From: Amoebophrya sp. A120
Lineage: Eukaryota > Protista > Dinoflagellata
DNA length: 64,000 nt
Assembly (NCBI GenBank): GCA_905178155.1
Contig: CAJINV010000003.1
Span: forward strand, 5,547,985-5,611,984
Direction: 5' to 3'
The position numbers and the translations under genes were made by a program. This document shows positions 1 through 64,000 of this stretch, one piece after another. The notes under the pieces were generated by a model. That model worked only from the letters and a program-made list of their open reading frames with translations, searched no databases and was not told the DNA's origin. Each line of letters opens with the position of its first letter. The first letter of the stretch is position 1.

Positions 1-170
1 CCCACTCTCAGCTGCCTCCTATCATGCTGAAGATGCAAGGCTTCCCCACGCCACCCAGCACTACAGTCCGCATCTTTTCCCGTGTAGCATGACAAAGCTG
101 ATTTGTGACAACAAATCTGCATCACAGATTTCCGTTTTGATATGGGGAGAGGGGATTTTTCCTTTTGATA
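1..170 (-). mobile_element. Introner-like intron, truncated by window edge (TIR family D)
   Basis: 121-170 (cacagatttccgttttgatatggggagaggggatttttccttttgata) resembles the ends of element 16040-16371; contains GCATGACA/GCATCACA; ORF 61-702 runs into it after ...VPYPD. Confidence 0.55.
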
Positions 171-3100
171 TGTCCGGATACGGCACCACGCGATGGCTCT
201 CGCCCTGTCCGGCGTACACCGTAAGACTCTTCAAGGCCAGCCGGCTGTACCGGTTCGCAGTGGGGGTCGTAAAGCCCTCTTTTGTCAAGGATTGCCGCCC
301 GAACTCGGGCGGGATAGCAGGCTGCTCCACGAACAAGTAACGGCCTTGCCGCGAGGAGCATTCGACAGACAAGTGGTCGCTTTGTTGGTTGTGGTCGGTG
401 GCCATGTCCTTGATACGGGTGTACCAATAGGCATCACTACCGTCGCCATTCAATTTCTGCCGAACCGACTCGCACTCCAAAAAATCCACGCCGCGTGTGC
501 CCTGCTGACAACCGCTGACCGCATCGCCCTGGTAACCAGACATGCTTGCGCTACCGCAGGGCGTGTCCGTGCGCAACCCGACTGCCAGGTTACCCCGAGC
601 GGTGCCCATGGGATTGCTGCATTGCCCCAGCTCGCTTTCTGTTACCGTCCTTCGGTCGAAATATAACGACCAGCAGTCGCCTTGCTCCAGACCCAGAATC
701 ACTTGCCCAACCGAGAACGCCGCTGATCCAAAGTCGACTTGGTACCAAGTATGGAAGCGTCAGGTTTGAAATCGACACAGTTGAAATGATTTGTCATGCA
801 TACCCGACTGCACCACATCAAAAAACTTTGCACCGTCGCCGCAAGCAGCTTCGGACGCAGTTGAAATGATTTGCCATGCATAAAATGCAAGGCACGAAGT
901 GACGGGCTTGCAGGGATGGCAAGTGAGGCCGATTATGAGCCTGTTTAGGGTTTGCAATAAAGCTGCTAAAGTAGCATGACAAAATCAGTCATCTGTGCCC
1001 AAACAGCGCGACAGACTGGATTTAGACGGTGCCGAAATTTGTCATACATGTACCGCTTAGAAATTGGGCTTCCAACTGGTATCGATTTTATGCATTACAA
1101 GTTATTTCAACTTTGTCGATTTCAATCCTGACACTCCCATACCAAGGCGCTCGATCGTACTGGCTGGTGTGAAAGGATCCAAGTTGCTGGAATGGTAGGG
1201 CGGCGATAATAGGTCGCAGGTTTGTTGTCGCGCTGCTCCAGGACGAGCTGGAAAACGCGCCCTGTACCACAAGCGCATCGGTATCGCGGCGGCGAAAGTG
1301 ATAGCTCCAACTCCCGGACGCCACCGTTTCGGATACGCTGGTGCCGCTCCCAATGTCCTCAACTTTGCAACGCATACCAGAATCCCGTGCTGTCAGGGTG
1401 CGGGTCTCACGAAGGCGGAGGCTGATCTGAGACCGCATCCAGCAGTAGCACCTCGCAATGAACCCGCTGTCATGCGACGACTGCCCCATAATTTCTTCTC
1501 CCCGTGTGTCCGCGCGATTCAGAACGGCAAGCTCCAGGTTGTCCGCACCAACGGAAAGGCACAGCCGCGCACAGGGCTCCATGGCAATCCCGTCCAACGA
1601 AGTGCCCTTGGGGTCCCCGAAGAGAACATCGTGACGGGTGCGGATCTCCGGCAGGTGGGCCAAAGGGGTGAGCTCTGTGTGGTCGTGGTAGCAGTGCGTA
1701 CCTTCATATGCCCACCGGAACGACCCCGCTGTGTGGAAATTTTTTAGCGTGCTTGCCGGTGCGTTGAAGAGCAAAGAGGCTACGCATCGCGCCTTGACTA
1801 GCGTCGCCAACCAGCGATCCGTAACGTTGCTGGTGCTGTAGCGCGGTGTGGCGTCGTCGGGGTCATATTTGAACCTGACCCTCACAGAATTCAGGGTCAC
1901 GTCTGCGAGGGCACCTCCCGCTTTCGTGCCCCACGTCTTCCCAGAAAGTTCATTTCCCGGGCCCTCCAGCTTTTCCCCCCGTATACGGAGTCTCTGTATG
2001 CAGCATCTTGTTGATGTGGTACAGCTATGCGCCCCATCATGCAGAAAGGTATTATCCATCTCATTATCGCGCGCGCCTGAAAGGGAACCAAGCTCCGCAG
2101 TGGCGCCGGTAGAAGGAGAAGCTTGGCAAACCGCGTTCAAATAATTATCCAGTGCCCACAACATCTCGTCACCCCCTTGCTCTTCGTTCACTCGCACGTC
2201 CTTAAACATGCTTTGCATGTCGGTCACTTTTCCCATTTTCATCACCGTTGGCGCATATTTGGTGTTGTAGCCAAATTGCAACTGCCTTCCTGCGCCTTCG
2301 AACATGCTTCGCGTTTCTGCCAAACTGTCCCACCCCCCCCCTCCCTCCCCCACCGTATACTCCAGGTTGCCAATAAACTTCAAAGATCGGCAGCCGTAGA
2401 ACATGTCCTTGGTCGACACGATCCCGATCGTGTTCATATAGTCCATCTCCAAATATTCCAGGTTCTCGCACCCTCGAAAAGCAGCCGTAAGGGATACGGT
2501 GCGCGCTGTGAGAAGTGCAGGAGTCACCGAGGCTCCTGAGAATTGCGGTCTCCAGAGTCGTTTCATTCTGCTGGCTCCAAAGAACGCTCCATCAAGGAAA
2601 TTAGCCGGTGTGCGGTGAAAATGCACCTCGATAATGGAAGACTGAAACCGAAGCATTTCGGGATCTGGATCATCACAGGAACGAGTGTCAGCCAAAACGT
2701 CACCCGCCACAAGGGCACCGCAATAGCGGGACCCTGGTCGGAGGCCCCAACCGATTTCTTTGTGCGCATTGTTTTTGTGGTTGTTACCGAGATCATAGCA
2801 CTGCCAGCTACCGTCTTTGTAAAGCTGCCAACCTTTTATTTGGAAGACCTGCTGGTTTTTATCCTTCGACTTAGGATAGTAAGTTAGCTTATCTTTCCAC
2901 TCCTGCTGGGTGTCACCGTATCCTGATTAAAAACGTCCCCACACCAGAGTCGAGATGGAAAATCTGCTAGACAAATCAACTAGCTTTCGTTGTTTGGCAT
3001 GACAAGCTTGTCCTCATACTGTAATCCTGTTTAGCTAGTTCAGAAGCATCACAGATCTAGCATAGCGTGCTGATCCTAGCATCACAAATTCCAAAACGCG

Positions 3101-5374
3101 AAAAGAAAATGCTTCTCATAGAGCTCCGCATGAGAAACTTTCTTGGCATGCAGAATTGCATGACAACTATGGACGAGTGGGGATGATTTTACACGGGATA
3201 CACCGTCTGCCTTATATATCCAGCCCCCGCCGTCACCATCCCCCCAATCCACGTAGAACCTTATCCCTATGGGAGTGTCAGGATCGACATCGACAAAGTC
3301 GAAAAATTTGTGATGCGTAAAATGTAGGGCACTCAAGGCCTGTATTGGGGAGCAGGCAAATGAGACCCATGGCAAGCCTGTGTAGGGCTATACAATATGC
3401 TGCCAGAATAGCATGGCAGGAGCAGTCTTCTTTGCCCAAACAGCATGACAGACTAGATTTGGGTGCTCCCGAAATTTCTCATGCGCCACTTGGAAACTGA
3501 GGCTCTAACTGGCGCCGGTTTTGTGCATCATTTTTCGATTTTGTCAATTTCGATTCTGACATTTCCATAATCCCGCCAGTGTTTGTATTGGCCATGTAGG
3601 TGTCCACGGGGACCGCCACTGGGTCACGCGTTTGGAAATCTATTAAAGTGAAAAATGCCCCCACCCCCGAACCTGGGAGCATTTGCATTGCAAACCTTTC
3701 CAAGTGAAACACTCGCCCTGTTGCATCTATCAGTATCACAGGTTATTTCCAATCGTAAATGGCAAAAATTTGCATTGCAAAAGACCCAAGCAAGAGTGGC
3801 GCTTGTCATGCAAGCGATGCGACATAAGCCTAGACTCTGGATCAGAAAGATTCATACTTCTTTCATGCGTGACAGTTTTCTTTTGGAAACTTCGCATCAC
3901 AAATCTTTGCGATTGCGACTTTGGGGGTGGGGGTATTTTTCACGGTAATAAACTCCATGATAAACTTACTCGTGACGTCACCGCAGCCAGAACCGTTTAC
4001 CACCGCGAACAGCAGGGACGGAATGAGAAATAAAGCGACAGTGCGTACTAAATGTATCAGACCACGTAGCCGCGTTCGAAGGGCCCCTGGGAGGACGTGA
4101 AGCTGCGCGAAGGCGGTAGATGTAACGTGTGAAAACGTCCCCGCCGCGAAACCAAGTTGGGAACTCTTGGCGTGCTGCAGCTGCACAAAATATAAAAATC
4201 CCCTTTTTGTAGAGTCCTCACGGGTTGCAAATTTCTATCTGCAGTGATGCACTTGCGCTGGTTGGCAAGGACAGCCGCATCGCCGAGACCACGCGTGCTC
4301 ATCCTCAACATCCCGTTTACAAGATTTACAAAAGGCGACTAGAAGAAAGGCCCCTGATAGAAATAAGCTCTGCCACTGCCTCTGGTGTCTCTGTGTCTGT
4401 CCCTGTCGGTGTCGACACAAAGAAATCTGCATGACAAAACTGGGGTGGGGAAAACTTTTACTCAGGATAGTGCACCTCGAACATTTACGCCGTGTTGCTG
4501 TCGACGCGGCGAGACAGAGCGGCGAAGGGTCCTCGTAGCACGTCCTTTTGCGATGAAGCCGCACCACTGGAAGATTGATGTCCGCAAAAATCCGACGAAA
4601 CAGAATTATGGCGCGGTGCAAGTAGACGAGTACTAGTACGTGCAACGAGGCCGCAACTCCAGATGAAAGCCAGGTTCGTACAGCCTGCAGCTGGATGTTG
4701 GAACAACAAAAAAGGCGATAGCGAACCTCGTCAGGAGCTAAAACGGTCGTCGAAGGCACCGATGCGGTGGCAGCCGAGTCGCGGTGCAAACAGGTGATTG
4801 CAATAATGCCACTATAATTGAGCAGACCACTCGTCTGCGGCTTCGGTAGAAGTGCTGTCCACGTTTTTACCAATCTGTGCCAACACACCACGTTGGCGCT
4901 CCTGCTCCTCCGCACGCACACTGCAACTCGACATATAATTCGACGGAGCTGTTCCACCTCCTGGTACAAATGGAGTGTACTGATCTCTCGCAGAGTGACG
5001 ACAAGGAGAAGCCCTCGTCTCGACGACGTCGAGGACTTCAGTAGCGACCCCGTCCTTTTGATCAGATCGATACTGTGGCCATCTCTTGCCGCGCAACGCC
5101 TCTTTTTCCGCCTTCCTGGTGTCATTCCGTAGTTATTTCCGGAACTAGAAGCACAATGGCGTAGCACCCTGTAGCAAGCTCTGTAGACGCAGCTGTGCCA
5201 ACGGAACCACAAAAAACGGCTAATCCTCAGTAAAGATAACGTCCCCACCCGCCCATAGTCAGGATGCCGATGCGAACTCCGCAACACAAAACTAGAATTC
5301 GAAAGTGTTGCGGTGCACCCACGGCGAACTTGAAATTGTAGCAAAGTGGTGGCTAGCGAGTCTAGACGGATCAC
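1..5374 (-). CDS. Multi-exon secreted/surface protein with VDWGDG motif, DUF285/BspA-like repeats, Cys-rich PAN/WSC-like segment and F5/8C (discoidin/F-lectin)-like motif; continues beyond window start; start codon uncertain
   Basis: ORFs 4235-5374, 3863-4186, 3479-3739, 3082-3375, 1088-2710 and 61-702 join in frame when five IR/DR introns are removed: ...CSRC|TAFAQ...VALFLIPSLLFAVVNG...IME|FQTRDP...NTGG|IRFYVDWGDG...ADG|DTQQEW...; STKDMFYGCRSL / TRSMFEGA / VTDMQSMF; FHTSQYDRAPW|YQVDFG. Confidence 0.7.
750..1141 (-). mobile_element. Non-canonical introner intron, TIR family B
   Basis: About 38-bp TIR (tatggaagcgtcaggtttgaaatcgacacagttgaaat / atttcaactttgtcgatttcaatcctgacactcccata); DR ccaag at 745-749 and 1142-1146; removing 397 nt gives APW|YQVDFG. 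Confidence 0.9.
2919..3200 (-). mobile_element. Non-canonical introner intron, TIR family C
   Basis: TIR tatcctgattaaaaacgtcccca / tggggatgattttacacgggata; DR caccg at 2914-2918 and 3201-3205; removing 287 nt gives an open frame into ORF 1088-2710. Confidence 0.85.
3268..3569 (-). mobile_element. Non-canonical introner intron, TIR family B (homologous to 750-1141)
   Basis: TIR tatgggagtgtcaggatcgacatcgacaaagtcgaaaaa / tttttcgattttgtcaatttcgattctgacatttccata; DR atccc at 3263-3267 and 3570-3574; internal similarity to 750-1141; gives TGG|IRFYVDWGDG. Confidence 0.9.
3641..3950 (-). mobile_element. Non-canonical introner intron, family C-like
   Basis: TIR tattaaagtgaaaaatgcccccacccc / ggggtgggggtatttttcacggtaata; imperfect DR aaatc/aactc; gives IME|FQTRDP. 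Confidence 0.8.
4121..4469 (-). mobile_element. Degenerate introner intron, family C
   Basis: tgtaacgtgtgaaaacgtcccc / ggggaaaacttttactcaggata; DR gtaga/gtgca; removing element+5 joins ORF 4235-5374 to ORF 3863-4186 in frame. Confidence 0.7.
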
Positions 5375-5534
5375 AGACCCACACTCAGCGTCTCAACAGC
5401 CTCCTGGTTAGAGCATTTAACATCACCTCGCCCAACGTGACCACCAGGAAAGAAAACCAGTCATGAAGAGCCGTATCATGACAAACATCCTGAGAATGCA
5501 GATTTGCAGCACGGGGACGATTTTAGTCAGGATA
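5222..5534 (-). mobile_element. Possible degenerate introner, family C
   Basis: aatcctcagtaaagataacgtcccc / ggggacgattttagtcaggata; DR not conserved. Confidence 0.45.
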
Positions 5535-6188
5535 CTAGCCCCAGAGTAGCTACTGATGGGCACGTCGTGCTGTGGTGGCACCTCCAAACCATCTCTAACA
5601 GGTGCGCGACGCAGTGATTTTTGTATTTTCCCCGTGCTGCTCGAGGGACGACCAACGCCGACGACCCTGATATATCGCAAGAAAAAACTGTTTCACTCTG
5701 AACCTCTGATGCAGAGGGCGCAAGAACGCAGGAATCCTTGTCTTGCTTCACAAGCTTACTTGATGCAAGACAGTGGAGCTTTTTCGTTAGGGACATCGCA
5801 TATCAATTTGATAATTCCTGTTCGGTTTATTCATGTCCTTACAATCAATGAACTTGCGGTGCGGTTGAAATCCTACAACGCGTGAAACGCGTTTTTCGTA
5901 CAATAAGATAGCGGGGAAGAGGAATATCGTTCCGAGATCGTCCTCTCCGTTCACCCCACAGCCTCCGCGTCTCCAAGATCGTCTACTTCCGAAGAAAGCC
6001 CGTCCGAAGAAAGCAGCAGCTTGCGGGGACGGACGGCGCGTTATCGCCTCTTCCGGATACCTCCACCCCTCTGCCCAACATCTTAATATCTCCAATGAGA
6101 ATACGTCCAGGTCGGGAGAAATTCAGCATTTTAATTTTTTGCTGGCAGCAACATGCACAGAAGTTATATATTATTTTACAACATGACC

Positions 6189-6423
6189 CATACTGTAAAT
6201 GTCTGTGTTGTATTAAGCCCGAGCACCATGGTCGTCTCTTTGAGTACATCTTGATCCGTATTGTGCTGCAGGAGAACGAGAAACTACGCCTTTTCCGCTT
6301 TAGCACAAATTAGACTCCTTTTGCTGCTCAGGGTGTACTACAGATTTTGTTTTTTGAGTTGTCCAATAGCAGCATCACAGGTTAGTTGCGCTCTTGCAGA
6401 CCCCGACATATTTGCAATGCGTA
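6189..6423. mobile_element. Degenerate introner, family A
   Basis: Right end tgcagaccccgacatatttgcaatgcgta matches the family A TIR; left end is decayed (catactgtaaatgtctg); DR tgacc/tgatc. Confidence 0.5.
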
Positions 6424-6750
6424 TGATCTTAGTGGGTGGAGGTACTATCCTGTGTAAAAGCAACGTGTCTTGCAAATTTTGCGCCCAGTGCATTTTCCGC
6501 GCAGTGCGACGAGAAGGAGGGTCATCCATGACGAATGCCAACGATTGAAATACCCTAGCCCGGAACAAGCCGGTTGCTCCACAACTAGCAAAAAGTCTAC
6601 TCTCGCACTCGCTAAAGAATTTCTATAACCTTCCCTCTCGGCTCCTGCTAATATAACACGATATTCATCTTACCACAACGAAATGTAATGTGGCACTACC
6701 TCCATATCAAAGCGCATGTCCATCTTGCTCGCATCGCGCATGCAGGGCCG

Positions 6751-9444
6751 TACCACGACAACGACACTTTCCAATCCGAATCCAGAGAGTGATGTGGTAG
6801 AGGTAGGAACCAGGTACCCTTGGACCAGGTACCCTTGGACCAGGTACCCTTGGACCAGGTACCCTGGGACCAGGTACCCGGGACCAGGTACCCTGGGACC
6901 AGGTACCCTGGGACCGGGTACCCTGGGACCAGGTACCCGGATGTGGGCACCCGGACCGGAGATGCGGATACCCGGGTGTGGGCACCTTTTCAACTTTGAG
7001 TTGAAAAAAAAAAGTCACACGAAAACTCAAGCGGTTTCACGTCTGGACGTCCACACCTGGGCACCGGCTGCCCGCATCTCCGTCCCCGGGTTCCCGGATG
7101 TGGGCACCCGGTACGCAGATGTAGATGGCCGGATATGGGTAGCGGTGCCCGCATGTGGGCACCCGGTGCCCAGATGTGGATATCGGCTGTGGCTTTGGGC
7201 GCCTGGTGCCTAAATGTGAGTACCAGGATGTGAGCACCTCGCGCCCGCCGGATGTGGGAGCCCACCTCTTCAACTTTAGCTAGCAGAAAGTGACGCGAAA
7301 AGTCAAGCGCTTTCACATCTGGATATCCACATCGGGGCACCGGGTGCCCACATCTCCGGACCCGGGTGCCCGGCGAGGGGCACCCGGTGCGCAGATGTGG
7401 ATGCCCGGATGTGGGTACCGGTCCGGGTGCCCACGTCCGGATACCCGGATGTGGGCACCCGGTACCCAGACGCGAATGCCCGGACGTGGGCCCCCCGTAC
7501 CTCTTCTCATAGGGTGCCCAGCCCTTGTAGGCACCCACGGAACATGGTACCCCGGTCCGCCGTTTTTAAAGCCGGGGGAGGCCGCTTCTTTCTTCATGCT
7601 AAATGATACAGCGCAACCCAGTACGCCGCTCTGGCCGCCCGGGAGCGAGCACCCTGGTACGCGAAAAACGAACCCACCCACCAAACTGTCAACCCGAGCG
7701 CCGCTGGTCAAGCATGGCAACCTTCCAGACCCAGACAAGTTTGCAGCGCAGACATACTCGGCAGCGCAGACTACTGCGACGGAGTGTGTCGATTTTGGTT
7801 TTCGCGACAACGACACTTTCCAATCCGACAACGACACTTTCGGGCCGTACCACGACAACGACACTTTCCAATCCGAATCCAGACGGCAGGGGGGCTAGAT
7901 GTGTCTGGCCCCACGAGCGCCCTCCGCCGGATTTTGTTGCCGGGGGCTTGCTCCTACGCTCGGCCTCCGCCTTTCGAAACAATATCGCGACCCAAATCCC
8001 CAAGGGCTTTCGGCCTTTCCGCCGTTTATCGGAAATACTCCGGGCGCGTGCCGCGGTGCCGCCTTTATGCGGGCCGGGCCCGCCCGAGGTGGGTCGGGCC
8101 GGGGCCCACCGCGGCAGGGCCTAGCGAATTCCCCTGCCGAAGCCGGGAAGCGAAGGCGAAACATTTGGGGGCCTGTTTGGGGGGCATCATTCGCCGCGGT
8201 TTCGCGCTTTTTTGGGGGGCATCTTTACCCCCTTCCGGGGGCCTTTCCGGAGGGGGCCTAGCCGCCGCGGCTTTTCCGGGCGGGCCTGTTCCACCTTTGG
8301 CCGCCTGGGCAGCCGCGCGGCCCCCCAAAGGCATCGGGGGGCGCTTGGGCCCGCGAAAGGCATACTGCCACTTTTAGCCGCCCGCCACATAAATCAAAAG
8401 GCCGCCCCGGGGTCTCCCGCCTGAATTCTCCGGGGGCCCACGGCCGGGGCTGGGGGTGGGGGTTTCGCAAAAAGAGCGCGCTATGGGCTAGCCGGGTGGG
8501 CAGGGCCCGGCACGCGCGATCCGGCGGGCCATTGTCGAGCCGCCGCAACCAGTTCACCACGGCTGCCCTGCTAGGGCCCTGGGCAAGGCTGCTGGCCCGG
8601 CCTGCCCAACTACGCACAGGAGGAAAGATTGTTAGCCCATGACAGAACGCACGCCGGCGCGCGCTCGCCCCCTGCTTGTAGTGGCGGGGGCGGGGGCGCG
8701 GCGGCCTCGGCTTGTATTCGTGGCGGCCCTGGCTTTCTTCCGGGGCCTACACCTCTTGCCCATGCTTCGGCTTCGGCTTTCGGCCTTCCGCTCGGTGGGG
8801 CGAGCGTACGGCGGCCCCGCCCCCCATGGTGCGCGCCCGTGGTGGCGCCCTGCGTAAGATCCTTGGCGACAAGCAGCGCCGCGGCGTCCCAACTTTAAGG
8901 GGCGCTGCCTCTGTGATTGGCCACGGAGCCATCGGGTGCGTCTGTGTGCCCGCAACCACAGAGGGGGCGGCGGCAAGTCCCTCGCCAGGGAGGCGGCGCG
9001 CCAAATCCCTGGGAAAGCGAAAACGCGCCCTGATGTGGCGCGGCATCGTCGGCGTCTTGGCAAGCTGTTCCCGGCCTCGGTTTGCTCTCAGTGTGGCAGC
9101 TTGGCGGGGCGCGGGCACCTACAACACTCAGGACCGTGCTCCCAGTTGCACCTGGGGAGGCCGCGGCGCCTGGCTAACAGCGAAGGCCCCGCGGCGGGCC
9201 CGCGAAAAAGTGGGGCTCGGAGGAGCTGGGCACGGCCGGCCACCAAGCTGACAGAAACACGCCTTGCAGGAATGGGGCGCGATGTCTTCGAGTGTTGCCG
9301 GGCTGCTCGGATCCCCACTCGTGATGGGGAAAAAATTTCACATCAAAATTTTCAGCATACTTGAGAAAAGCGCACCTGACGCCGCCATATGCAAGGCCAT
9401 ACCACGACAACGACACTTTCCAATCCGAATCCAGAGAGTGATGT
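6751..9444. repeat. Segment bounded by an exact 45-bp direct repeat, with stuttered internal copies at 7805-7883
   Basis: taccacgacaacgacactttccaatccgaatccagagagtgatgt at 6751-6795 and 9400-9444. Confidence 0.9.
6808..7560. repeat. Palindrome-rich tandem/degenerate repeat (15-bp ccaggtacccttgga units, then atgtgggcacccgg units)
   Basis: About nine GGTACC-centred units at 6808-6940, followed by many ggatgtgggcacccgg variants in both orientations. Confidence 0.9.
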
Positions 9445-10209
9445 AGCGGCTCAACATACCTTCGCAACCACCAGTGCCAAATGCAAATCGTGCCCCCCTC
9501 TTCCAAAAGCCGAGCCTTCGAAGACGGCCATCCTTTTGCACCCTCGTCTGGCACTGGGAGGGGTAGGGAACGACAACGACATGCTGCAAAAGGTGCATTT
9601 CTAGCACACACCACGCAACGGGAACGTTTGATGTACACAGGATAGTACAACTGGTGCTCCCTGTATGCAACGGAAAAAGTGCTACAGTTAGATCACACTG
9701 TGTTGCAGGCAACGCAAGACATGATCCCACCACATAATAAGTATGTGTAGCAGCCTAGTGGTGCTACTAGCTTCACACATGTAGTTGATTTCCCTTGTGA
9801 TCTCTGAATTTTCCTTGCAAGTTTATTTCTCATTCTCTCACTCTGGTGTGATACAAACTTGCTAAGGGTACCACACATGATGTCCTCGTGTAAGTGTATA
9901 TACTTTTTTCTTGGGATACCCCGCTGGTGATTCTGCGGACCGAGGGGTAACATCCAACCGGGTCTTTTCCGTCCCCCTATCAAAGAAAAAAAGTTCGTCA
10001 CGATCACTCATGCGCATTTTTGCAATTGTTTGTCATGCGTAAAAATGCATCACAGCCAAACTTCATTAAGGATTTCCCTAGTGTTTCTGCAATATAAGGA
10101 AAGTTTGTGATGATTTGTAATGCAAAACCTGCAAGTTAGTGACTGTGACAAACTTTTTTCTCTCCATACCCCCGGCTCATTTGCTACTCAAGGGGCAGAC
10201 GAGCTCGTG

Positions 10210-10543
10210 TGTCCGCTGTAAATATGTCTGGGTCTAGAACAAACTCCTGATGCTGAGGGGCGACAATTGAGCATGCCCTCGAGCTCGGTGTGGGTGTCGT
10301 GTTGAATACAGCTGCGCTGCATGACAAACTTTTTTCAAGATGATGCTCATCATGCTTTTATTTTGTTTGCTACGCATCACGAGGAACTGTTTTATATTCA
10401 TTAATTTTGCATATCGAAATAAAAGCGACCGCGCTCCGCCTCCTTCTATCTTTTGTTCTTCTTGGTCAACTACATGCAAAACAGCTTTCTAGTCTGCAAG
10501 ACAGGTTCCAATTTTCCTCACCCAGACAAGTATGCAGAGGATA
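10210..10543. mobile_element. Degenerate introner, family A
   Basis: tgtccgctgtaaatatgtctgggtctag / cccagacaagtatgcagaggata; internal GCATGACA; DR not conserved. Confidence 0.5.
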
Positions 10544-10580: not shown

Positions 10581-10841
10581 TATGGATTGCAAAAATGTCT
10601 GGGTCTGGATGAAGCTTGTGATGCTAAAATGTGGATGATGGAAACAGTTCCGAATGTAACACAGCATGACGACTTTTCAGAACGCTTTCTCATAGGAAGG
10701 CCGCGTGAGAAACTGCGTTTTTGCGTGTACGAAAGAGGCTGCGACTTTTGTTGGCTATGACATACCGATTTCCTAGGTATGGAGAGCTAGCATTACAAGT
10801 TGCAACCTTCCAGACCCAGACATTTATTTTTGCATTTGATA
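10581..10841. mobile_element. Introner, family A (reverse-complement homologue of 63176-63435)
   Basis: TIR tatggattgcaaaaatgtctgggtctgga / tccagacccagacatttatttttgcatttgata; DR ctgc; whole body aligns to the reverse complement of 63176-63435. Confidence 0.85.
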
Positions 10842-15400: not shown

Positions 15401-16799
15401 CCCTCCCGACCATTCCGGAGAGGAACTTCTGAGGCAGACGCGCAGATGAACAAGAGCCCCACGATCCACCTTCTTTGGTTACATACGCACTACACAGCCC
15501 GGCGAGCCCCCGCAAGACCACCTCGTCTTTCGGTGCTGCAAGCGCCACCACGCGACGAGCAGCCCTTCACGCTCTGTGGGATGCTTGGGCTCGTGTCCAT
15601 ACGTAGCGCACTTTTCTTTTAAGTAAATGCAAGTCATGCAATACAAATTCACCCTTCTGTACGCTAACGACCGTCCAAGGCGTAACCCCTTCTGGAATTG
15701 CGCCATGTAGTCCGCCCGGCCGCTGGGGTCCGCGATCGACGGCATGATTGGGGGGCTAACTACGTCAAGATCAACTTCTTGGGCGGCGCTGTCAGAAGAA
15801 CTCGACACCGGTCCTCCCCGTGGTCGTTCCACACCACGACCTGAGCGCACAGAGGGTTCTTGATCTGGTCGGCGCCTTGGTGAGAATACATGTTGCCCAC
15901 GCGGGCTCTCTTCCTCGTACAACCGCACACCGCCGGGCAAACCGGGGTCCAACGAAATACTCAGTCCGCGAGTCGTATCATTTTTGGGCGAAATCATGTA
16001 GACCAGTGGTGGTCCTCGAACAATGAAGTCTCTCCATGCTCCTGTCAAAATAAAAACTCCCCCCTCCCCATATCAAAACGGAGATTTGCGTAGCATGGTT
16101 ATCAAGTGAGTAGTCATGCTAGAAGGCAAAAGATGCAGACTGTCGTGCTGGATGGCGTCGGAAAGCCTTGCGTCTTGCTTCAGCGTGACAGGAGGCAACT
16201 CCACTGGAAGTGGGAAACAGCATGACCAATTGCCTGCAAAACAGGCCAAGACTGCGTCTCTTGTTGGCCTTCTAGCGAAGATACATACAAGTCGATTGGT
16301 GTAGTACGCAAAGAGAGCATCACAAATGTCCTTCTCGATATGGGTAGGGGGGATAATTTTTCTTTACAATACATGCCCGGCTTTCATCATGCCCCTGCTG
16401 CTGCGGCGACCGCGATGAGCAGCTCGCGGAGCTCTCCATACCGGGCGACGAACCCGGTGGTCCTGTGCTGGCGGCGCCGGGCGACGGATCAGCTCCGGGT
16501 GGTGACTCAGGACCTGAGTCGTGGTCAAAAAGGGGCCGCTTTCCTCCTTCTTCTGGATCTGGGATATTTGTGGTATAATTATTCGCTGTCCCTCCGTGAC
16601 AATCATTTGCCGGCAACGTCGGGGGTCGGGGCTCTTCTAAACTCGAGCTGTACATGCGCACAGCTCCGACCCGCCAAATGCAGCTGCATAATAGCGGAGT
16701 AATTCTCTTTCGGCAGAGCCACGACATCTTCGATCTTAGGGTTACAGACGGTGATGTAGAAGATGCTGTTTCGGATTCAACAAAAAAAATGCGTATCAA
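12411..16799 (-). CDS. Hypothetical multi-exon gene(s), possibly partly decayed
   Basis: ORFs 16320-16799 and 15479-16048 join across introner 16040-16371 (ESRA|WRDFIV); 15479-16048 and 14142-14792 share the duplicated ADPSGRADYMAQFQ; further minus ORFs at 13446-13703 and 12411-13409; no recognisable domain. Confidence 0.4.
13763..14159 (-). mobile_element. Possible degenerate introner
   Basis: IR tatcctacagaaataaactaca / tgtaattagtcttctgtaggatc; DR not conserved; ORF 14142-14792 terminates inside it. Confidence 0.45.
14464..15733. repeat. Segment bounded by an exact 44-bp direct repeat of coding sequence
   Basis: ttctggaattgcgccatgtagtccgcccggccgctggggtccgc at 14464-14507 and 15690-15733. 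Confidence 0.9.
16040..16371 (-). mobile_element. Non-canonical introner intron, family D
   Basis: Imperfect long TIR (aaaaactcccccctccccatatcaaaacggagatttg / caaatgtccttctcgatatgggtaggggggataattttt); perfect DR catgc at 16035-16039 and 16372-16376; restores frame. Confidence 0.8.
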
Positions 16800-54882: not shown

Positions 54883-54941
54883 TATTTCAAATAAACTTAT
54901 CTGACTAGAAGAGCCAGTTTGAGTCTCAAGGCGTAGCGTAG

Positions 54942-55462
54942 TGTTAGTGGACTTGAGAACACTCGCACACACTTACACACGTTTGCTCCACTGTGCTCGT
55001 TATCAACAGCATTTCTATGAATTCTCTCAATTGCAAGTAAGCAAGCAAGTGACGCAAGTCTCTTGCTGCGTTTCATCCTGTAGGTTCAATTCATCCAAAT
55101 TCATCACATTCATATGGACCAATCGGGTTCAGAGTCAAGTAGCCAAAACAGCATGGGAGTCCACTCCTCAACCTGCTCAGATTGGTGCTCGACCCTGGCG
55201 GGAGTCAAGTCCCCCAGGGTGACCATTCTGAACGTCTGGACCGAGCTGAGTCCATTCATTTCACTACGATCCTGACGGCTTTGCCTTCGTAGTATTTGGG
55301 GGATTCGCGGAACATGGTGAAGAGATTCCTTTAGGATCTAGATAGATTCTGACCATTTCCCTAAGGATCTAGATAGTTCAGGCTATTCAGATCTGTCATT
55401 TCATTGGGAACAGGCGTCATTTGGGGCGATCGTGTGTGCGGGATCGATTTCCATGACCAACA
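54942..55462 (-). repeat. 5' LTR (521 bp)
   Basis: Direct repeat of 49278-49804. Confidence 0.97.
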
Positions 55463-55552
55463 ATGAGAAAAATAGTCTTTTGGGAGCATTGCTATAGAAG
55501 TACTTATGTGCTTTTCCAATTCATTTCGCTGAAATCTACTACCGCGATATAT

Positions 55553-57470
55553 TTATATACCAGATTTCCATTCGGAAATCGATCGTCGTCCACTTCCGGT
55601 TCCGTGTAGTAACCGTAATATTCGTCGGTTAGTATGGAAAAAGGCATTCATTCCACCACGTATCACGCCCAGGCAACGACAGATCATTTTCGATGCGTCT
55701 TTCTTGTACGAAATATCCTTTTTGTAGGCGATGATAATTGCTCTGATCGCAGCCAAAAACCACAACATTGTGTGTGGCTCTAAGTTTTTGAGTAGCACAA
55801 CTTGATACTGCCTCCACTCATCAATGCACGACACGGAGCATGCTGTACAAAGCTTCTTTGGGTGTGGTGGTGGTGTGCTTTTCTCCTGTCGTAGCTGAAC
55901 TGCTGTCACTGTACACGGGGTCACTGGAGTATCAACTGCAAGCACGTCTGGGTCTAGAAATAAGTTGTGACGCTAAATAGATGAATGAAAATCTGACTCC
56001 CGTGCGCACCCACGCATAAGAAATTTCTGAGTCGTTTCGTAGTGCGTAAGCGTAACCGCAACCCTCATGAGTGCATGACAAAGAGGCAGCGCTTTTCAAT
56101 AACGCACCACAAAGTAAAAGCTCAGGGGCATCGGCATGTTGCGGCTTCAGCATTAAAATCTGGCAACTTGAACTTTCCCGACCCAGTCGTGATTGCAACG
56201 CATATGTAGACTGTGGTTGACATCTCGTAGCTTGGCTGCCGGTAAGCGTCATGCTCCGGATAGCTGTAGACGGGCGGGTTTGAATTTTCCTGCTTCGATT
56301 CTCCTGCGAATGCGCTGCGACCACAACGAGATTCGATCCAACATTTGGAAAAGGTGTGGATTGCGCAATCTCGGCTTTCATCTCAGTACGGACTTTCGTA
56401 ATCTTTATCTTACTTGTTGGACAATCGCGTCCTCATGGTCTCATGCTGATCACATAAGTATAAAGAAAAATGCTTCTAGTACCCATGATGCTGGTAAAAA
56501 TGGTGCGGCCCCACGCCGGACGACGATGAGGACGAAGTAGTATGGTAGGAAAAAGCCTTTCACAAGCAATATGCTGCGCATGCGTTCGGTTTTTCTTTTT
56601 TTGCATCAGAAAAGAACTTCTCTGCATGCAAATCAATGCCTGATGCAGAACCCTTAAAGCTGTACGTGAAAGAATTATACTTATGGGAATCGCCAGGCAA
56701 TTCGCCTTCTGTTCCCAGCATCTATACAGTTGTCCTAAAAATTTGTAAGAACAAAGGCATCTTGTCGTGTGAGAAATTTTTCCTCTGCAGTACGCACTGG
56801 GATGAAAGTAGTAGTCTTTTGCGTCCCGGGTCGGTCTGCTTGATCGTCTCTTTCCGTTCCCGTTGCCGCCCTCGAACTGATCGGAGCTATGCCGAGCAAA
56901 ATTGAAGCCTCTCAGGTAGTTGTATCCTTTCTCCAGCACGTTTTGGTGATACAAACGCGGCACCATGTGTGCTTACGGAAAGAGAAAAGTGCATGGATAC
57001 TGTGACACTAACTAGCCAGAGCCTTGGCTTTGGTCGTGCTGTTCCTGTGGATAGTAGCTTGGGTTTGTGTAGTTGTTGTGATGGTACGGTATCTGCTGCA
57101 GCTGCTCTGGGTGGCTGTAGGGCCGAGTCTTCGCCACGTTACCTGAGTTCAAAATTCCAACATTGACTTTCAATCGCTTCTGATGCACGCAGATGTTGTA
57201 CCTATGCACAGCAGTATGAGAAGTGCCGCTTGGCTCCGCGAAACTAGCAAAAATGCCTGAGTGAATATAATAGATACCCTTGCGCTTCTGCAAGCACGGC
57301 ACGCGAAACATTGTCCCAAGAGAGTCTGGCGGTGGGTCCCAGTTTTGCGTGGCCAGATCAACGAAATCAAATTGCAAAACTTCGTTGACAGTCACCGAGC
57401 GGATAGCTTCCTCTTTTGGACCGTGACCGTTCTCCTTCTCCTGCAGTACAAGAAACGCATGAAAAAAACC
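55553..57470 (-). CDS. Possible hypothetical multi-exon gene
   Basis: Chain of minus ORFs; one junction restored by introner 55930-56204 (QPQST|VTPCTV); no domain recognised. Confidence 0.35.
55930..56204 (-). mobile_element. Degenerate introner, family A
   Basis: tatcaactgcaagcacgtctgggtctagaaa / tttcccgacccagtcgtgattgcaacgcata; DR tggag/tgtag; in-frame join. Confidence 0.7.
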
Positions 57471-59144
57471 AACAGCAAAGACGAATAGTCGATCAAAAGA
57501 TTTTGTACACTTGTGGTCAGTGAGAGTGAGTACTGGCTAGTTATCAATTTTGAATTTTGTACAGTCGTAAAACAAGAACGATTTTTATCCAAATGAAAAT
57601 TTCAACGCGTGCTACAAAAAGTCAATGCTACAAAAAAAGATACAGGTTTCAGTGACCATCCACTTCTGTTGCACAACAACATTCGCTTCAAAAAACACCC
57701 TACAAAAATTTCAGAGTAGGAAACGACATGGTTGGAAAATCAGACTCGAAATCACGAAAGTCAAATAACCCGTGGAATTATTTTCGGATACGCGGCGCGT
57801 AGGAATGAAATGAAATCGCCTCAAATGCTTGCACGTCAGAATATGACGAAAACCCTGACAACGATACTTTTATTTTCACGAGAGTGACGACCACGACATG
57901 CGATTTCTTCTTATTGCGATTCGCAAAAGGGAAATGGAATGATCCAAATTCACGCGAAAATTGATGCGTCACAACGAATTGCGCACCCTGCGACGACAAG
58001 AAGCAAGTTCTACCTGCGCGACAAAAGCGCTGTGAAAAATATTACATCTTGCATCCGTGTACGACCCAACAAAGACTGGAATTCTAAGCTTGCATTCACA
58101 GTGGCAGGACCGTATTTGCAAATAGCAGAAACGCATCGCGACGCTTGTCTTTCATCGGAATGAGAGGCATCAAAGACAATCACGATCGACTACATGTCCC
58201 TAGGTTGATCGATGCTTCAGATCTACGTGCTTCTGCATTGAACCTGAGTTATATCCATCGACATGCTTCTTCTCGTCTTTTTGATATTATAATGAAGTCC
58301 GAAAAAGACCTGAAAGATCGAAGGCATGAACACCTTACATGACCGTACTTAGTTGCCTTTTCTGTTTGCGCGTACTCCTCGTCTGCAAGAATCAGACACG
58401 ACACGCTTGCTCTTTTCTGTGAGTGTGAGTAGAAACTGCGATCCCACCTTCTGCTTCGACGTAATAAAGCTCCAAGGTACTATTTGCGTTTGAAATGCCA
58501 GCTGGTTCGATTTCCCGCGGGGAGTCCCACCACCGCCTTCTTCTACCGCACGACATCTCCCCCAGGTAGCGGGCCAACTGCGACTGAATGTTGTAAGGAA
58601 ACCAATCAGTACCACTACCAAACCAAAACCATCATATCAAACTGAAGAAAGTCAAAGAAGAATAAAATTTTACACGGTTATCCCGAGGTTGTAGGTAAAA
58701 CTGAAGCTATTGATGAAAAGACTCCTTTCATTCTGCTACCCGCTAATTGGGCAGACTGATTAAGTTGTTGACATAGTGCAAGTTCTTGACGCGAAAACTC
58801 ATGAGTATCTGATTGTAAATAGGAATTTGCGGAAACCAATATGTAAGCCAGGAAATTACTTGTGTTTGTAATTGCGCAAGATATTTCTCGTGGTCATATC
58901 GAAAGTGGATGGCTCTTTCAGGATCAGGTCAAGTAGAAGTTCATCTCGCTGTTATTTTCGTAAGCATTTATTTGACTTTTGTGCTCGCTGTAAGAGTAAG
59001 TTTCGTTGAATTCAGAATGTAATAAGCAAGGTTTGTCTAATATTCAGATTCAGTTTCGTACTTTGGATTTATTGCTTTCTTTGATATGAAAATCAAAGCC
59101 ACAGATACAGTTTCATTTTTGATGGTGCAGCCAGTGCTTCCTCT

Positions 59145-62100
59145 TCACACGTCGAGAGATGTGAGCATGGCGCAGCCGCGCTTGACCCAATGCTTGGCCT
59201 CGTGCGTCTCTTGAATGGGCACGCGCATAGGCGTATGCATTGCAACTATCTCCGGGTCTCGAAACTTGGCATGCTAGTTTGTGAAAGGTGGGCGCACTGC
59301 AATGGATGCGTAGCCGAGCACGACAAGTTTTTGACCTCCAATGTGTTTCGTTTCCCGAATGGAAAACTGCGTTCTTGTATGACATTCCACAGGCTTTCTT
59401 TCTGGTTATGCATCACAGAGTTAAAAATCTGCTGTGAAATGCATGACAAACTTCCACTCTTCCAGACCCAAACATGTTTGCAATGCATAAGGCATGACGA
59501 AGTTGGTACTGTGACCGGTTGTCGACAGGACGCCTCTGCGGGTGCTGATCTTGTAGACCGGACAAGAGTAAAAGCGGAACTCGTGCAGCTCGTCCTTTTT
59601 GCAGGGCGTGATGTGCACCATCGGCACGGACGTGAACAGCACTTTAGGCTCCGATTCCGCCAGCGCCCACTCGTCCCAGTCCCATCTCGCTCCCTCCAGG
59701 AATAGCCCATATGTATACACGCCGTCGGCTGTAAGTGTTGCCAGACAGAGCATTAGCGCAGTTCAATCATCTGTCTGTCTTTGTGCGTAGACAATTGAAA
59801 ATGAAATGGACACTGGCGTTGGCATCACAAGTCAAAGCAACATCAGAAAAACACAATTTCTCATGGAAAAGTTCATGCAATGTTCATCTGTACTTAAATT
59901 CATGTGCTCCTACCTCGTGAAGAAGTAAAAATCATATAAAATTACCAGGTGGCTTCGTTGGTTTTTGCTCCTTTGGGTAGTAGAAATCGAAGATCAGGGT
60001 GTCGATGGGGATTGTGTATTTTCGAGCAAAGTTCTGCGACGCGCCGGTGGTGAAAGCCTGCGTGAAGAAAATGCCGGAGATCCAGAAGAGCGCCGGCTTC
60101 CCGCGGTCGATCCAGTTCTGGTAGAATTTGAGGCGCTCGAGGAGGTCGCTCACGTACCCTCCCAGCGGCTTCAGCGAGGGATACGAGGACGCGAGCCACA
60201 TCACCGGCGTCTTCCCATCGAACATGTTGAAGAACGCCTCCTCCAGCTGCGCGCTGAGCAGCGCCAGACCCTTCAGCGCTTTCAGAATCTCCTTCAGGGA
60301 CTCCCGAATCACGTTGGTCAACTTGTTGTACCTGGTCACCTCCTGGAACAGGACCGTGTTCATACTTTCCTCGTACATGACCGGGTACTTCTCCTGGACG
60401 GCCGGGATGTTCCACGGCTTCGGCAACCGTGCCAAAATGTCGTTGGCCACCTCCCGCACCAAGTCCTCCGGACCCGCGCCGCCGCCCCCAGAGGCCTGTC
60501 CGACGGTCTTCAGCAGATCAGACATCATCTGATACGTTTCCCCTTGCTCCTTGGTCAAATTCGCGTTCTCGTGGAACCCAAATACGCCCGGTGGTGTCAC
60601 TGGTGTTGAGAGTACAATGTGATTTTCATTTTTCGAAGTAAGTCTGCAGCGAAAAACGCGCACAAGTGGCTACGCTCTGTTATACAGAGGTCGGAAATCA
60701 AAGTGCTAGAGACGCGCTGTGCAAGTTTCCTTATGGAGGTTATGCACAGAAACCACATAAGCAACAGCGAGCGAGAACCAACTGAGAGAGTGCTTTCATC
60801 TATTATACTTGCGGAATATTTTAGCAAGGCAGTTATGTCTGCTTGTGCGAGAATCAAATAAAGTATCTACCCAATGGCAAAGACTTGATGTGTGCCAGTA
60901 CACCGTCAAACTCCTCGTCTTCTGTCAGTGGGTACAGGGGCTCACCGGCCATGCGGTACTCCCCATCAAAGATGGTTTCGTCAAAGTAGTCCCGTAAAAG
61001 GGTCATGATCAGAATTCGATCATTCCCGTCGGTAACCCTGCCCCCGTAGTTGCACTCGCCCGTCATGTAGGTTATTGCCTAGATACAGGAGTGTTTTAGT
61101 CTTTTTCAGCAACATGGAACGTGATGCAGATTCTGATTCGTCATTTGCTTTTTACAAAATTGATGACTTAAGACGCAGCGACAAGTACAAACAACAATGA
61201 ATACGCTGTCTCAATAAATAAGCCCTTGCTACTTACAAGTACAAATAACATAATAAACGGAGAAAAATCAGAATGCATTGTGTGTACCTTGAACGGCATC
61301 TTCTCTTGTTCGTCTATGAACATCTTGAGCTGCATGACTGAGATGCGCAAGTCGTTTTCTGTAAATTCGTAGGGAATGTTCCATCCGAGAGGGCCGAAAA
61401 GTTTCCGCTCCTGATCCATATCCTGCGAAAAAGTGTACTAGTAGTTGCTGCAAGTGGATTACTATGAGTATCTATGACATACCAGGACCCTAATCGGACC
61501 GTACCACCAGTAGAAACCCTGGCCCTGCAACATGCAAACCTAAGCCTGACGTGTATTCTGGTATGGCCAGCTCACGGTCACGACCACAGCGCCCTGGATA
61601 AATATACCGTCGCCTCTTGGAAGTAGAGAGACAAGAACTCTACTCCGAGCGGAGGACTCCTAGTACCACTGACTAGTACGACTCTTTTTACTCGACTTAG
61701 ATGACTGCGTGGAAGAAGCAGAGACCGTAGAGCAGGCGCTTGAATTCCCGAGGTTTCTTGCACCCGTCAAAGAAGTCCGGATCTGAGATCGGGTTCATGA
61801 GGTACGACCCGGTGAGGTTGGATCGCAGTCCCTTGGGTGCTTCGTTCGTCATTTTCAGCCCGTTCTGCAAGATTGCCACCGGGAACTGGTTTGATGGGTA
61901 CGAGGTGAGCCACAACCGGTATTCCTTGTGCAGCTTCCGCGCGTCCTGCTGGTCCAGCATCTTATCCAGTTTGGGCATCCAACTGGTGGCCAAGTGGCAG
62001 TTCTGCAGCAACACCCAGCCGCCGTCCTTCTTTCCGTCCGCCATCAGCTTCTCGGCCTTGGGCCCCTGCCCCTGCCCCAGCGAGATCGCCTGGATCTCCT

Positions 62101-64000
62101 TGCCCTTCTCCAGCGCAAACTTGTCCAGTGCCGCTTTCGGGTCACTGCCGGGCGACAGCACAAACACCAGCGGAATGCCGTTGCTGCTGTCCGCGAAACT
62201 CCCGGCCAAGTCAAAGGGCGGCGGGTTCACGAAATCCTCGCCCAGCTTGCCGGCGACGTACAGCATAATCGCGGGCACGAGCCGATCTGGCCGGAAGGCG
62301 CGCAGAAACATCAGCTCCTCAAAGTCGTCAAACCCCTCCAGGGTTTTTGGCGCGAGCGCACGCAATTTCTGTCGTATCATTGATATTGTGTTGACGTTGA
62401 CACACAGACACTGTCGCTCAAAATTGCGAACGAGATACGATTCTTCGATGAAAAATCATCGATGCGTTCTTGAATCTTGATACGAGGGCTCCGTGCGATT
62501 GAAATAGATCGATGCTGAATGATGCACAATGAATTATATACTATTTCCAGCTGTGCTATAAAGGAACGGAGACGGAAAAAATGTTGAAACATGAAAGGAG
62601 ATACATTTAATGGATCTGTATCGTCGTAGGCTTGTTTCATCAGTTCCAGCTCCTCGGTAAACTTCGTGTCGACGCCTTCAAATTTCTCTGCAACCTTTCC
62701 CAGCTTGAAGACCTCTGCCCAAGTTCTCACAGGAATCCAAGATGCCGGCATCTCAGGCGGCTGCTCCATACTCACGCCGCCGGTCAACAGATATCGATAG
62801 TTTGACATGTCTATTATGCCATCCGCCAAAAACAGTCGTGCGCACAGAAGGAACGAAAACAGCAACTTGTGCCTGTAAAAATTATCGACCAAGTCCATCA
62901 TGCGCAGCTTGAAGATTGCAAGCACCCCAGATAGCTTTAGCTACACCCTCGAGGACATCTTCGCACAGCACTGACTAACACTCATCTTCAGTAACGTGGA
63001 TGCAGCAACTTCTACGCACCACGACCACCCGGCCTACTATTAATTATAGCTTCCAATGAACAATAGTTCGAAGCTGGTACTACAACGACTACTGCTATTA
63101 GCTTACCTTTCAAACAGACTGCGGCAAATGTTGCGGTAGAGGTTGAGGCGAAAGAAGTCGTTGATGTTGAAGATGTATGCATTGCAAATATGTCTGGGTC
63201 TGGAAGTTTGGAACTTGTAATGCTAGCCTTCCATATCTAGGAAATCTGTATTGCATAACCAACAAAAGTCGCAGCCTCTTTTGTACATGCAGCAAACACG
63301 CAGTTTCTCATGCGGATTGCCTATGAGAAAGCGTTCTGGAGGAAAGTTGTCATGCTAAATTGCAGTCGGAACTGTTTCCATCATCCACATTTTAGCATCA
63401 CAGGTTTCCAGACCCAGACATATTTTCATTTGATAAGATGCGCTGGTCCAGCTCCGAGGCTTTTTCGGCGCGCTCGATGGAGTTGAGGAACAAAGCCGTG
63501 TAGAAGGGCAGGGAGTACTGGTACATGGGATCGATGTTCGCCAAGTCCTGGATACAGAAGAACATCACGCTGGCTTTGAAGGCCACCGGCACGTAGGTCA
63601 CGCGCGCCTCGTCGATCTTGATCTCCGTGGCGGCGCCCACCTCCTGCTTGGCGGCGATGTCGTTGGCGATCACCTTGGACTCCTTCAGAATGTTGATGGC
63701 GGACTCGTCCTCCAGAATGTTGCCCTGGGACTCCGACAACACGCGCAGGATCTCGTTCTCGCAGTCCTCCAGCGCTTTCTTGTTCGCCGCGCCCTCCAGC
63801 ACCAGTTTTTCCTTTTCCTCCGCCAGGTCGGGCCGCTCCTCCTTCACCACGAAGTTGAGAATCTGGTCCTGCAGCCCCACCAGCGTGATCATGAAGTTCA
63901 GCAGCGTCACCTTCACGGCCACGTCAGGGAGGTAGTGCGGATTCCGCAGCTTCGTGGTCATGTAGAAGAAAAAGTCCTTGGAGTACTCGATAATGGACTC
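59145..64000 (-). CDS. Axonemal (inner-arm type) dynein heavy chain, 3' part (AAA5-AAA6-C-terminal domain); 5' part outside window
   Basis: MTTKLRNPHYLP, IDPMYQYSL, CRSLFERHKLLFSF, LSPGSDP, SLGQGQGP, WVLLQNCHL, QERKLFGPLGWNIPYEF, NYGGRVTD, GLFLEGARW, GHSTNFV, HWVKRG; GT-AG introns 62873-63106, 62369-62604, 61079-61287, 60600-60870, 59729-59945 plus three non-canonical introns. Confidence 0.96.
59234..59489 (-). mobile_element. Non-canonical introner intron, family A, in dynein
   Basis: tatgcattgcaactatctccgggtctcgaa / ttccagacccaaacatgtttgcaatgcata; DR aggcg/aggca; gives HSTNFVMP|MRVPIQETHEAKHWVKRG. Confidence 0.93.
61419..61699 (-). other. Non-canonical intron (decayed introner) in dynein
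   Basis: Subterminal IR aaaaagtgtactagt / actagtacgactcttttt; element+5 removal gives the conserved FFHAVI|QERK. Confidence 0.7.
63176..63435 (-). mobile_element. Non-canonical introner intron, family A, in dynein
   Basis: TIR aaatatgtctgggtctggaa; DR agatg at 63171-63175 and 63436-63440; removing 265 nt gives DQRI|FNINDFFRLNLYRNICRSLFE. Confidence 0.95.

Follow-up and report, generated by a model that had tools for sequence, protein, structure and literature searches.

In a 64,000-nucleotide (nt) stretch of the Amoebophrya sp. A120 genome (contig CAJINV010000003.1, positions 5,547,985 to 5,611,984; hereafter the window), genes are interrupted by elements that begin with TAT, end with ATA and carry terminal inverted repeats (TIRs). 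At eight of them, contigs presumed to derive from RNA skip the element together with 5 nt, and a sole register fits all eight joints: the intron takes in 1 nt upstream of the 5’ TAT and 4 nt downstream of the 3’ ATA (referred to as 1/4). We propose that these elements are non-autonomous DNA transposons that are removed from the message by a hairpin-guided, relaxed spliceosome, the choice of catalyst being one that we favour with moderate confidence.

Transcript joints and the register of removal

The contigs in question, X1-X4, come from four runs of one study covering two samples, and their RNA status is presumed, not on record; a fifth run, X5, is DNA-like. Between positions 55470 and 64000, the X1-X4 contigs contain 14 joints, seven of which correspond to GT-AG introns and seven to skips of an element plus 5 nt. 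An eighth skip of the latter kind is present in an X1 contig at 13193-13519, while the X5 contig 10808-14463 keeps the element of that intron. Skip length minus element length equals 5 at all eight joints. A prior sequence-only reading of the window had anticipated precise removal at the RNA level alongside ordinary GT-AG introns, and both expectations are borne out: at the eight joints, the contigs neither retain the elements nor use nearby GT-AG sites. Its statement that the boundaries are not GT-AG also holds, since GT-AG is absent from every possible register at all eight. Short intron-internal pieces are present for both intron classes, and no back-joint was found among the joints of the X1-X4 contigs in 55470-64000; in both respects contigs report presence, not quantity.

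Wherever the two copies of the flanking duplication are unlike, the base kept in the exon can be read from the transcript. At the 13193 and 61415 joints, 1/4 is the only register possible, and the registers allowed for the 56537 and 56884 introns (elements 56541 and 56888) overlap at 1/4 alone. Ambiguity remains at six of the eight joints, where 2-7 registers are allowed. In the 1/4 register, the ends of the eight introns are CT-CC, CT-AA, AT-CC, GT-AC, CT-TC, TT-CC, CT-GA and TT-TC; all eight have TA at +2/+3, with the TAT and ATA of the element ends at +2 to +4 and -7 to -5. An A at -7 was considered as a fixed branch base and is ruled out, as the spliced 13193 intron has a G there.

The cut might instead slide within the duplication or vary by family, the eight joints being a lucky subset. 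The joints that permit several registers would suit this, as would the variable positions reported in text and legends by Farhat et al. 2021 (PMC7789003; here and below, papers are cited from their accessible sections) and the mixed mechanisms given for 32 of 58 A120 families, mostly unclassified TIR elements with target-site duplications (TSDs) of length 2-6 (Gozashti et al. 2025, PMC12130899). Against it, the two joints that are exact, independently of each other, point to the same register as the overlap of 56537 and 56884; the one-sided invariance of TA described below implies a fixed 5’ position; and positions would look variable anyway where mappers cannot place joints in perfect duplications. 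We regard a sliding cut as decidedly unlikely, and a register that is fixed genome-wide as very likely.

The presumed status of X1-X4 also bears on a reading in which these contigs are DNA and the elements are absent at the DNA level, through insert-free alleles or programmed excision. The same contigs skip seven GT-AG introns exactly, mismatched duplications resolve in one hybrid register, and X5 keeps the elements. This scarcely credible alternative is already largely refuted.

Reading frames across the elements

Removal of element plus 5 nt was said in the sequence-only reading to restore reading frames, and this is borne out, with exceptions. Excising the seven elements between 172 and 6180 in this way yields a 1133-codon frame, compared to 612 codons for the unspliced region and 608-820 when 0, 3, 4, 6, 7 or 8 extra nt are removed. 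This gene (~170-6200) has almost no exon cover in X1/X3, which is uninformative on its expression. The spliced dynein heavy chain gene is free of stops through 958 codons, and its non-canonical junctions are ungapped against 11 homologues at two of them and against 10 at the third, where one homologue fell short. The named dynein matches of highest identity (64-70%) are dinoflagellates, none of them named Amoebophrya; the intron signature, co-oriented genes and a GC content near 50% suggest that genus. The claim fails at 6189, 9978 and 10210, where the join leaves no open frame, and in three short regions 5 nt performs no better than other lengths.

A search with the family A pattern returned at least 168 loci in contigs of JACKZZ01, a second public assembly, none of them the window locus. 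There, a codon model supplied the host strand (in agreement for 93 of 103 neighbours), and 227 oriented elements were used after 52 of 279 had been dropped as unoriented or too close to an end; family A is over-represented in this sample (114 of 227). When the frame is called separately to the left and to the right of an element, 112 of the 117 callable cases need 2 mod 3 extra nt, the other 110 of the 227 elements having no callable frame. Separately, the phase estimate for 213 oriented elements of this assembly with a callable frame is skewed to 0 (99:50:64), which may be scoring bias.

Base constraints at the intron ends

At TIR positions 1-2, none of the 227 elements deviates at the transcript 5’ end and 12 do at the 3’ end; at position 1 alone the counts are 0 and 8 (p=0.008). 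Ten of the 12 deviants are clean and two are likely wrong boundaries; with the clean ones only, a hand-worked two-sided sign test (0 versus 10) returns a value of about 0.002. Deviations at position 3 are found at the 5’ end (6) as well as at the 3’ end (3), which suggests that the one-sided TA is not simple strand mutation bias. Thus the 5’ TA is invariant, resembling the GTA of ordinary donors, while position +1 and the last two bases are free. The GT or GC start and AG end of U2-type introns are not found together in the non-canonical introns, and TA at +2/+3 is all that they have in common with ordinary ones. That targets are chosen so as to yield GT-AG was also considered, and rejected on the element counts of the second assembly.

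Terminal stem and orientation

Folding predicts 8-21 expected pairs between the two ends in each of the eight non-canonical introns, against 1.8-6.5 in shuffled sequences; for the canonical introns the predicted values are 1.5-4.8 in six of seven and 11.9 in the seventh. Four of the eight keep the predicted stem although only 1-2 of 5 positions of their duplication still match. Family A elements lie in either orientation relative to the transcript (61 one way, 47 the other, 6 unclear; n=114), and the oppositely oriented 59234 and 63176 elements are both skipped in one dynein transcript. Hence both orientations are spliced within one gene.

In family A elements such as 40887 and 63176, the two ends bear different variants of positions 4-7, paired near randomly. 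This random pairing suggests end shuffling between copies.

A model for removal and its weighing

In the model that we favour, an enzyme of the cut-and-paste kind, cutting with a 5-nt stagger and indifferent to the target, would insert an element of 150-400 nt either way round. In the pre-mRNA, the element ends are predicted to pair into a stem. Cleavage would fall in the 1/4 register, as seen at eight joints and exactly at two of them. This would leave in the exons four bases from the first duplicate and one from the second, and would restore the pre-insertion message at any target. At +2/+3, the TA of the repeat may be recognised as the GTA of an ordinary donor is, whatever the base at +1; the 3’ cut, made without AG, would be placed by distance from the stem. 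As the ends are symmetric, both orientations would work, and insertions into exons would be nearly harmless and could accumulate.

Several points weigh against this picture. The register is drawn from 8 joints in 3 genes of one study, in two samples and presumed-RNA contigs, and the legend of Fig. 3 in PMC7789003 calls splice positions variable relative to the hairpin. The one-sided TA depends on a strand that the codon model supplied, with the 52 elements left aside. Spliceosomes normally use G at +1 and a terminal AG. In the second-assembly elements, G is not favoured at +1 (63 of 188 versus 55.8 expected), nor is AG at the intron end (19 versus 14.1; AGG 8 versus 4.2, p=0.075), and 39 mismatched duplications show no drift towards GT-AG. 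The bases at TIR positions 4-7 pair loosely (0.41-0.76), and those of family A no better than permuted ends do (31 versus 28.6 of 114); the outermost TAT/ATA pairs may therefore not form, and they are unpaired in one predicted fold. Finally, no transposase was found in the window or in 430 kb of loci, a very small share of a genome.

Some of these points would be expected if, with the same transposon origin and geometry, the hairpin were removed by a separate structure-guided endonuclease and ligase, as proposed for euglenid introns. Such a machine would need neither G at +1 nor AG, and would account for stems predicted in all eight introns and kept after the duplication decays, and for fixed offsets from the stem. 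U1 was not detected in A120, where U2, U4, U5 and U6 are present (PMC7789003), and euglenid TIR introns, with their stem at +4 to +6 and -8 to -6, exit as circles, not lariats (PMC11282704). Nevertheless, the one-sided TA at +2/+3 matches the GTA start of the ordinary introns beside it, and the layout of direct and inverted repeats recurs in 15% of canonical A120 introns (PMC7789003), suggesting one machinery. Amoebophrya A25 seems to position its different repeats such that TA once more falls at +2/+3: Table S4 of PMC7789003 gives T at +2 in 9 of 9 predominant A120 sites and TT in 9 of 9 A25 sites, where the repeats begin TTA. These TT/TTA ends would fit an N-T-A rule; mixed strand assignment and mapper bias could contribute to the pattern in the table. 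On this evidence a dedicated nuclease and ligase appears rather unlikely as the remover, and the relaxed spliceosome is retained as the favoured catalyst.

More tentatively still, we entertain a broader formulation, possible but short of an even chance, in which neither G nor AG would be needed and an intron would be defined by three features: a stem formed by its ends, UA at +2/+3, and a 4-nt ruler that sets the 3’ cut. Such a geometry would exactly cancel a 5-bp duplication, whatever the target or the orientation. It would be exploited by one undescribed transposon superfamily with TAT ends and GCAT(G/C)ACAA subterminal sites, and A25 would have arrived at N-T-A from other ends; taken furthest, the idea has a second splicing machine, distinct from the spliceosome, do the cutting.

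Mobility of the elements

The hand-completed catalogue holds 37 TAT...ATA inverted-repeat elements, so the earlier count of about 30 was fair, and one further element is cut by the window start and ends at 170 (Table 1). The TSD matches at 5/5 positions in 11 elements, at 4/5 in 13 and at 3/5 or fewer in 13, i.e. at 4/5 or better in 24 of 37. Of the 13 poorest, two (6446-9644 and 10581-10841) have a 4-bp repeat, for which the cut rule would cost the exon one base, and eleven are decayed.

To judge the flanks, TAT...ATA pairs were picked by TIR score alone, without use of the flanks. At a score of at least 11, 14 of 16 pairs have a 5-bp flanking repeat with at most one mismatch, exact in 7 of 16; for the same 16 pairs, other repeat lengths give 0 of 16 at 6-10 bp and 2 of 16 at 4 bp. 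At a score of at least 9, a flank match of 4/5 or better occurs in 15 of 25 real pairs against one pair in total over ten shuffled windows. A control with the terminal triplet only did not single out TAT (12 pairs, mid-rank among 64), because long TIRs get counted at every offset; of the two, the flank test is the informative one. The inverted repeats and their 5-bp flanking repeats are thus confirmed as real, beyond chance.

Among TIR pairs of at most 700 nt in the 168 loci, the 5-bp repeat is exact in 241 of 374 and has at most one mismatch in 288 of 374, many of the remaining pairs being internal sub-repeats. In both data sets, then, most elements have a 5-bp direct repeat, as had been claimed. 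No base preference is seen at the 5-bp target in these loci. Window positions 1-171 have a 98.8% identical copy with another flank, suggesting recent movement, and summed X5 read-word depth over the elements reaches 10,000-21,000 against ~20-25 in unique DNA, a figure that is not copy number. A 5-bp duplication without target preference, dispersed copies with different flanks and high X5 depth together support a cut-and-paste DNA transposon origin, which we consider highly probable; the proposal of non-autonomous DNA transposons with dispersed homologues, made from the window alone, is upheld in the second assembly.

The 227 oriented elements form 22 clusters, 12 with two or more members. Across them, TAT at positions 1-3 and A at 11-13 occur at frequencies of 0.87-0.96. 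The elements (56.8 kb) contain 667 copies of the motif GCAT(G/C)AC, compared to 19 in shuffled sequence and 6 in 15.9 kb of flanks; the motif is present on both strands, in 207 of 227 elements and 12 of 12 multi-member clusters, most often 34-35 or 42-45 nt from each element end. The families, previously described as unrelated, have this motif and the end pattern in common, and probably represent TIR families with common signals and one origin. As the motif has been lost from several old, still-spliced introns, it may be a putative DNA-level binding site of the mobilising enzyme. Its candidacy as a required splice signal was rejected (exact 8-mer missing in four of eight spliced introns, one-mismatch copy in two of eight).

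Searches for the enzyme itself covered 18 open reading frames (ORFs) of the window and, of 122 ORFs in the loci, the 90 longest; none matched a DDE family. Long elements suggested by TIR pairs and a matching duplication proved to be chance pairings, the 3.2-kb window element or a single family A copy of 631 nt that lies in two overlapping loci. Three TIR patterns had no match in viral contigs, and one pattern had none in prokaryote genomes. Within the family C-like element 6446-9644 lies a GC-rich 2.7-kb insert (6740-9444). Direct repeats of 56 nt (96%) bound it on both sides, two further, partial copies of this repeat lie at 7805-7883, and 6809-6938 is a 15-nt tandem array; three ORFs of this insert have no Pfam match.

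Regarding mobility only, the elements could be moved in trans by a Ty1/copia-type integrase and not by a classical DNA transposase. The window contains a copia-like long terminal repeat (LTR) retrotransposon that likewise has a 5-bp duplication, no transposase was detected in the A120 work of PMC7789003, and A120 family 38 combines TIRs with copia/gypsy-like ORFs (PMC12130899). The ends of the copia-like element are TG...CA, however, not TAT...ATA. It sits as a passenger in a ~6.3-kb GT-AG intron (49235-55560), apparently skipped by the transcript contigs to judge from a contig’s loose end; the LTR-like matches of introner families may thus be due to nesting. A 5-bp stagger is, moreover, common to several DDE enzymes. 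We find integrase-driven movement unlikely, and return to a cut-and-paste DNA transposase as the probable source.

Other features of the window

No Rfam match was found in the window. On the minus strand, 23300-34200 holds one or more large genes with cysteine-rich units of ~200 residues and threonine-rich linkers, likely encoding a surface protein; near-perfect 615-nt repeats lie at 31100-34100 within them, and in 700-nt repeats at 25000-27000 intron-like stretches are duplicated along with the unit. Also on the minus strand, 42998-45502 is an unbroken 834-codon frame with a JmjC/cupin match and without elements. A 29-47 nt repeat occurs in four copies across 17910-20673, the last two flanking a 252-codon plus-strand frame (19871-20629) that opposes the host genes and has no Pfam match and low atlas scores only; a 220-residue ORF near 19967 likewise has low atlas scores only. 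A 48-nt direct repeat (14460-14507 and 15686-15733) surrounds a 1.2-kb multi-copy region with raised X5 depth.

Table 1 Elements, introns and genes located in the window. Registers are given as nt before the element / nt after it.
Feature	Position	Strand	Remarks
Element truncated by window start	1..170		98.8% identical to copy with other flank in locus L037
Family B element	750..1141		TSD 5/5
Family C element	2919..3200		TSD 5/5
Family B element	3268..3569		TSD 5/5
TIR element	3641..3950		TSD 4/5
Degenerate family C element	4121..4469		TSD 3/5
Degenerate family C element	5221..5534		TSD 2/5
TIR element	5673..5905		TSD 4/5
Degenerate family A-like candidate	6189..6423		TSD 4/5; join leaves no open frame
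Family C-like ends 3.2 kb apart	6446..9644		4-bp repeat; contains unrelated 2.7-kb insert; no transposase match
TIR element	9664..9918		TSD 4/5
TIR element	9978..10168		TSD CCCCC; join leaves no open frame
Degenerate family A-like candidate	10210..10543		TSD 2/5; join leaves no open frame
Family A element	10581..10841		4-bp repeat (exception)
Non-canonical intron	13193..13519	-	degenerate element 13197-13518 + 5 nt; X1 joint; single register possible (1/4); ends CT-CC
Degenerate candidate	13763..14162		TSD 1/5; boundary uncertain
TIR element	16040..16371		TSD 5/5; decayed 3’ end
Degenerate candidate	21584..22004		TSD 4/5
Family A element	22058..22329		TSD 5/5; variant 3’ end
TIR element	22391..22605		TSD 4/5
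Degenerate candidate	22808..23272		TSD 1/5
Family E element	23676..23875		TSD 4/5
Weak degenerate candidate	27332..27879		TSD 2/5
Family A element	28657..28908		perfect 31-nt TIR; TSD 5/5
Family C element	28974..29384		TSD 4/5
Degenerate element	30751..31087		TSD 3/5
TIR element	36180..36453		TSD 4/5
Family C element	37246..37535		TSD 5/5
TIR element	37625..37816		TSD 4/5
Family C-like element, 633 nt	38291..38923		TSD 5/5
Family A element	40887..41138		TSD 5/5
Copia-like LTR retrotransposon	49278-55462	-	530-nt LTRs 96% identical; TG...CA ends; 5-bp duplication; 1271-codon ORF with RVT_2
Non-canonical intron	55629..55894	-	degenerate element 55633-55893 + 5 nt; X1-X4; registers 0/5 or 1/4
Non-canonical intron	55926..56205	-	family A element 55930-56204 + 5 nt; X1-X4 joint
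Non-canonical intron	56537..56793	-	degenerate element 56541-56792 + 5 nt; registers 1/4 or 2/3; GT-AC in common register
Non-canonical intron	56884..57054	-	degenerate element 56888-57053 + 5 nt; registers 0/5 or 1/4
Axonemal dynein heavy chain gene, 3’ part	58413..64000	-	958-codon open frame once spliced
Non-canonical intron, dynein heavy chain	59230..59490	-	family A element 59234-59489 + 5 nt; orientation opposite to 63176
Non-canonical intron, dynein	61415..61700	-	degenerate element 61419-61699 + 5 nt; single register possible (1/4); ends CT-GA
Non-canonical intron, dynein	63172..63436	-	family A element 63176-63435 + 5 nt; perfect TSD
GT-AG introns, two genes	56264-56482, 57143-57277, 59729-59945, 60600-60870, 61079-61287, 62369-62604, 62873-63106	-	all start GTA

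Significance and comparison with known systems

In A120, more than 60% of introns must be recognised although they lack GT-AG and no U1 has been detected. PMC7789003, in its accessible sections, leaves the A120 cut position variable or open, with no clear splicing signature; the cut rule turns this into a testable code, N|TA...stem...NNNN|, and predicts boundaries for tens of thousands of introns that are ambiguous to mappers. It also names the bases to mutate and the places in which to seek lariats or circles, while the common DNA motif offers a handle for hunting the missing transposase.

The window elements have the features of miniature inverted-repeat transposable elements (MITEs), i.e. 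TIRs, a TSD of fixed length, short size, no coding capacity and many copies. Micromonas-type introners are likewise non-autonomous TIR transposons in which the intron is the element plus part of the duplication, but they carry or borrow GT/GC and AG and need a suitable target, which the window elements do not (PMC11282704). The MITE-derived introns of Fritillaria borealis similarly have TIRs, TSDs and non-GT-AG ends, and there the U2 spliceosome is needed and removes them (PMC11282704; bioRxiv 10.1101/2025.08.15.670264); they differ in preferring AG-AC/AG-AT ends and in a retained U1, whereas the first and last bases of the window introns are free. Euglenid nonconventional introns resemble the window introns in a stem at fixed offsets, TSD-like repeats and coexistence with spliceosomal introns (PMC11282704). 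Their offsets are +4/-6 with CAG/CTG, against +2/-5 with TAT/ATA here, and circular products are known for them; the euglenid CAG/CTG stem at +4 to +6 and -8 to -6 is not found in the window introns.

Within Amoebophrya, such elements are confined to part of the genus (PMC12005148). A25 introners are also non-canonical introns with inverted and direct repeats, whose 5’ TT and TTA repeats are compatible with N-T-A; they differ in length (~120 nt), repeat motif and position of the duplication (PMC7789003). In the accessible parts of the open literature, a fixed register, one-sided TA, orientation independence and the internal motif are not stated, although Figs 3 and S19-S25 of PMC7789003 may show part of this; the corresponding parts of PMC11282704 and PMC11453091 add nothing further on register, and the passages of PMC12787238 contain nothing relevant.

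The element class itself is already published for A120, as the sequence-only reading had stated for Amoebophrya. Farhat et al. describe introners of ~240 nt as non-canonical introns that coexist with GT-AG introns in the same gene and lie in co-oriented genes, with TAT-N7-AAA repeats and direct repeats of 3-5 nt (a 5-bp example is given in the legend of Fig. S19), MITE-like and without a transposase (PMC7789003). We regard the window elements as the same class, given their TAT start, seven loose bases, at least three A and direct repeats. To the published description the window and the second assembly add one register, an invariant TA at +2/+3, removal in both orientations and an internal motif that is found across families.

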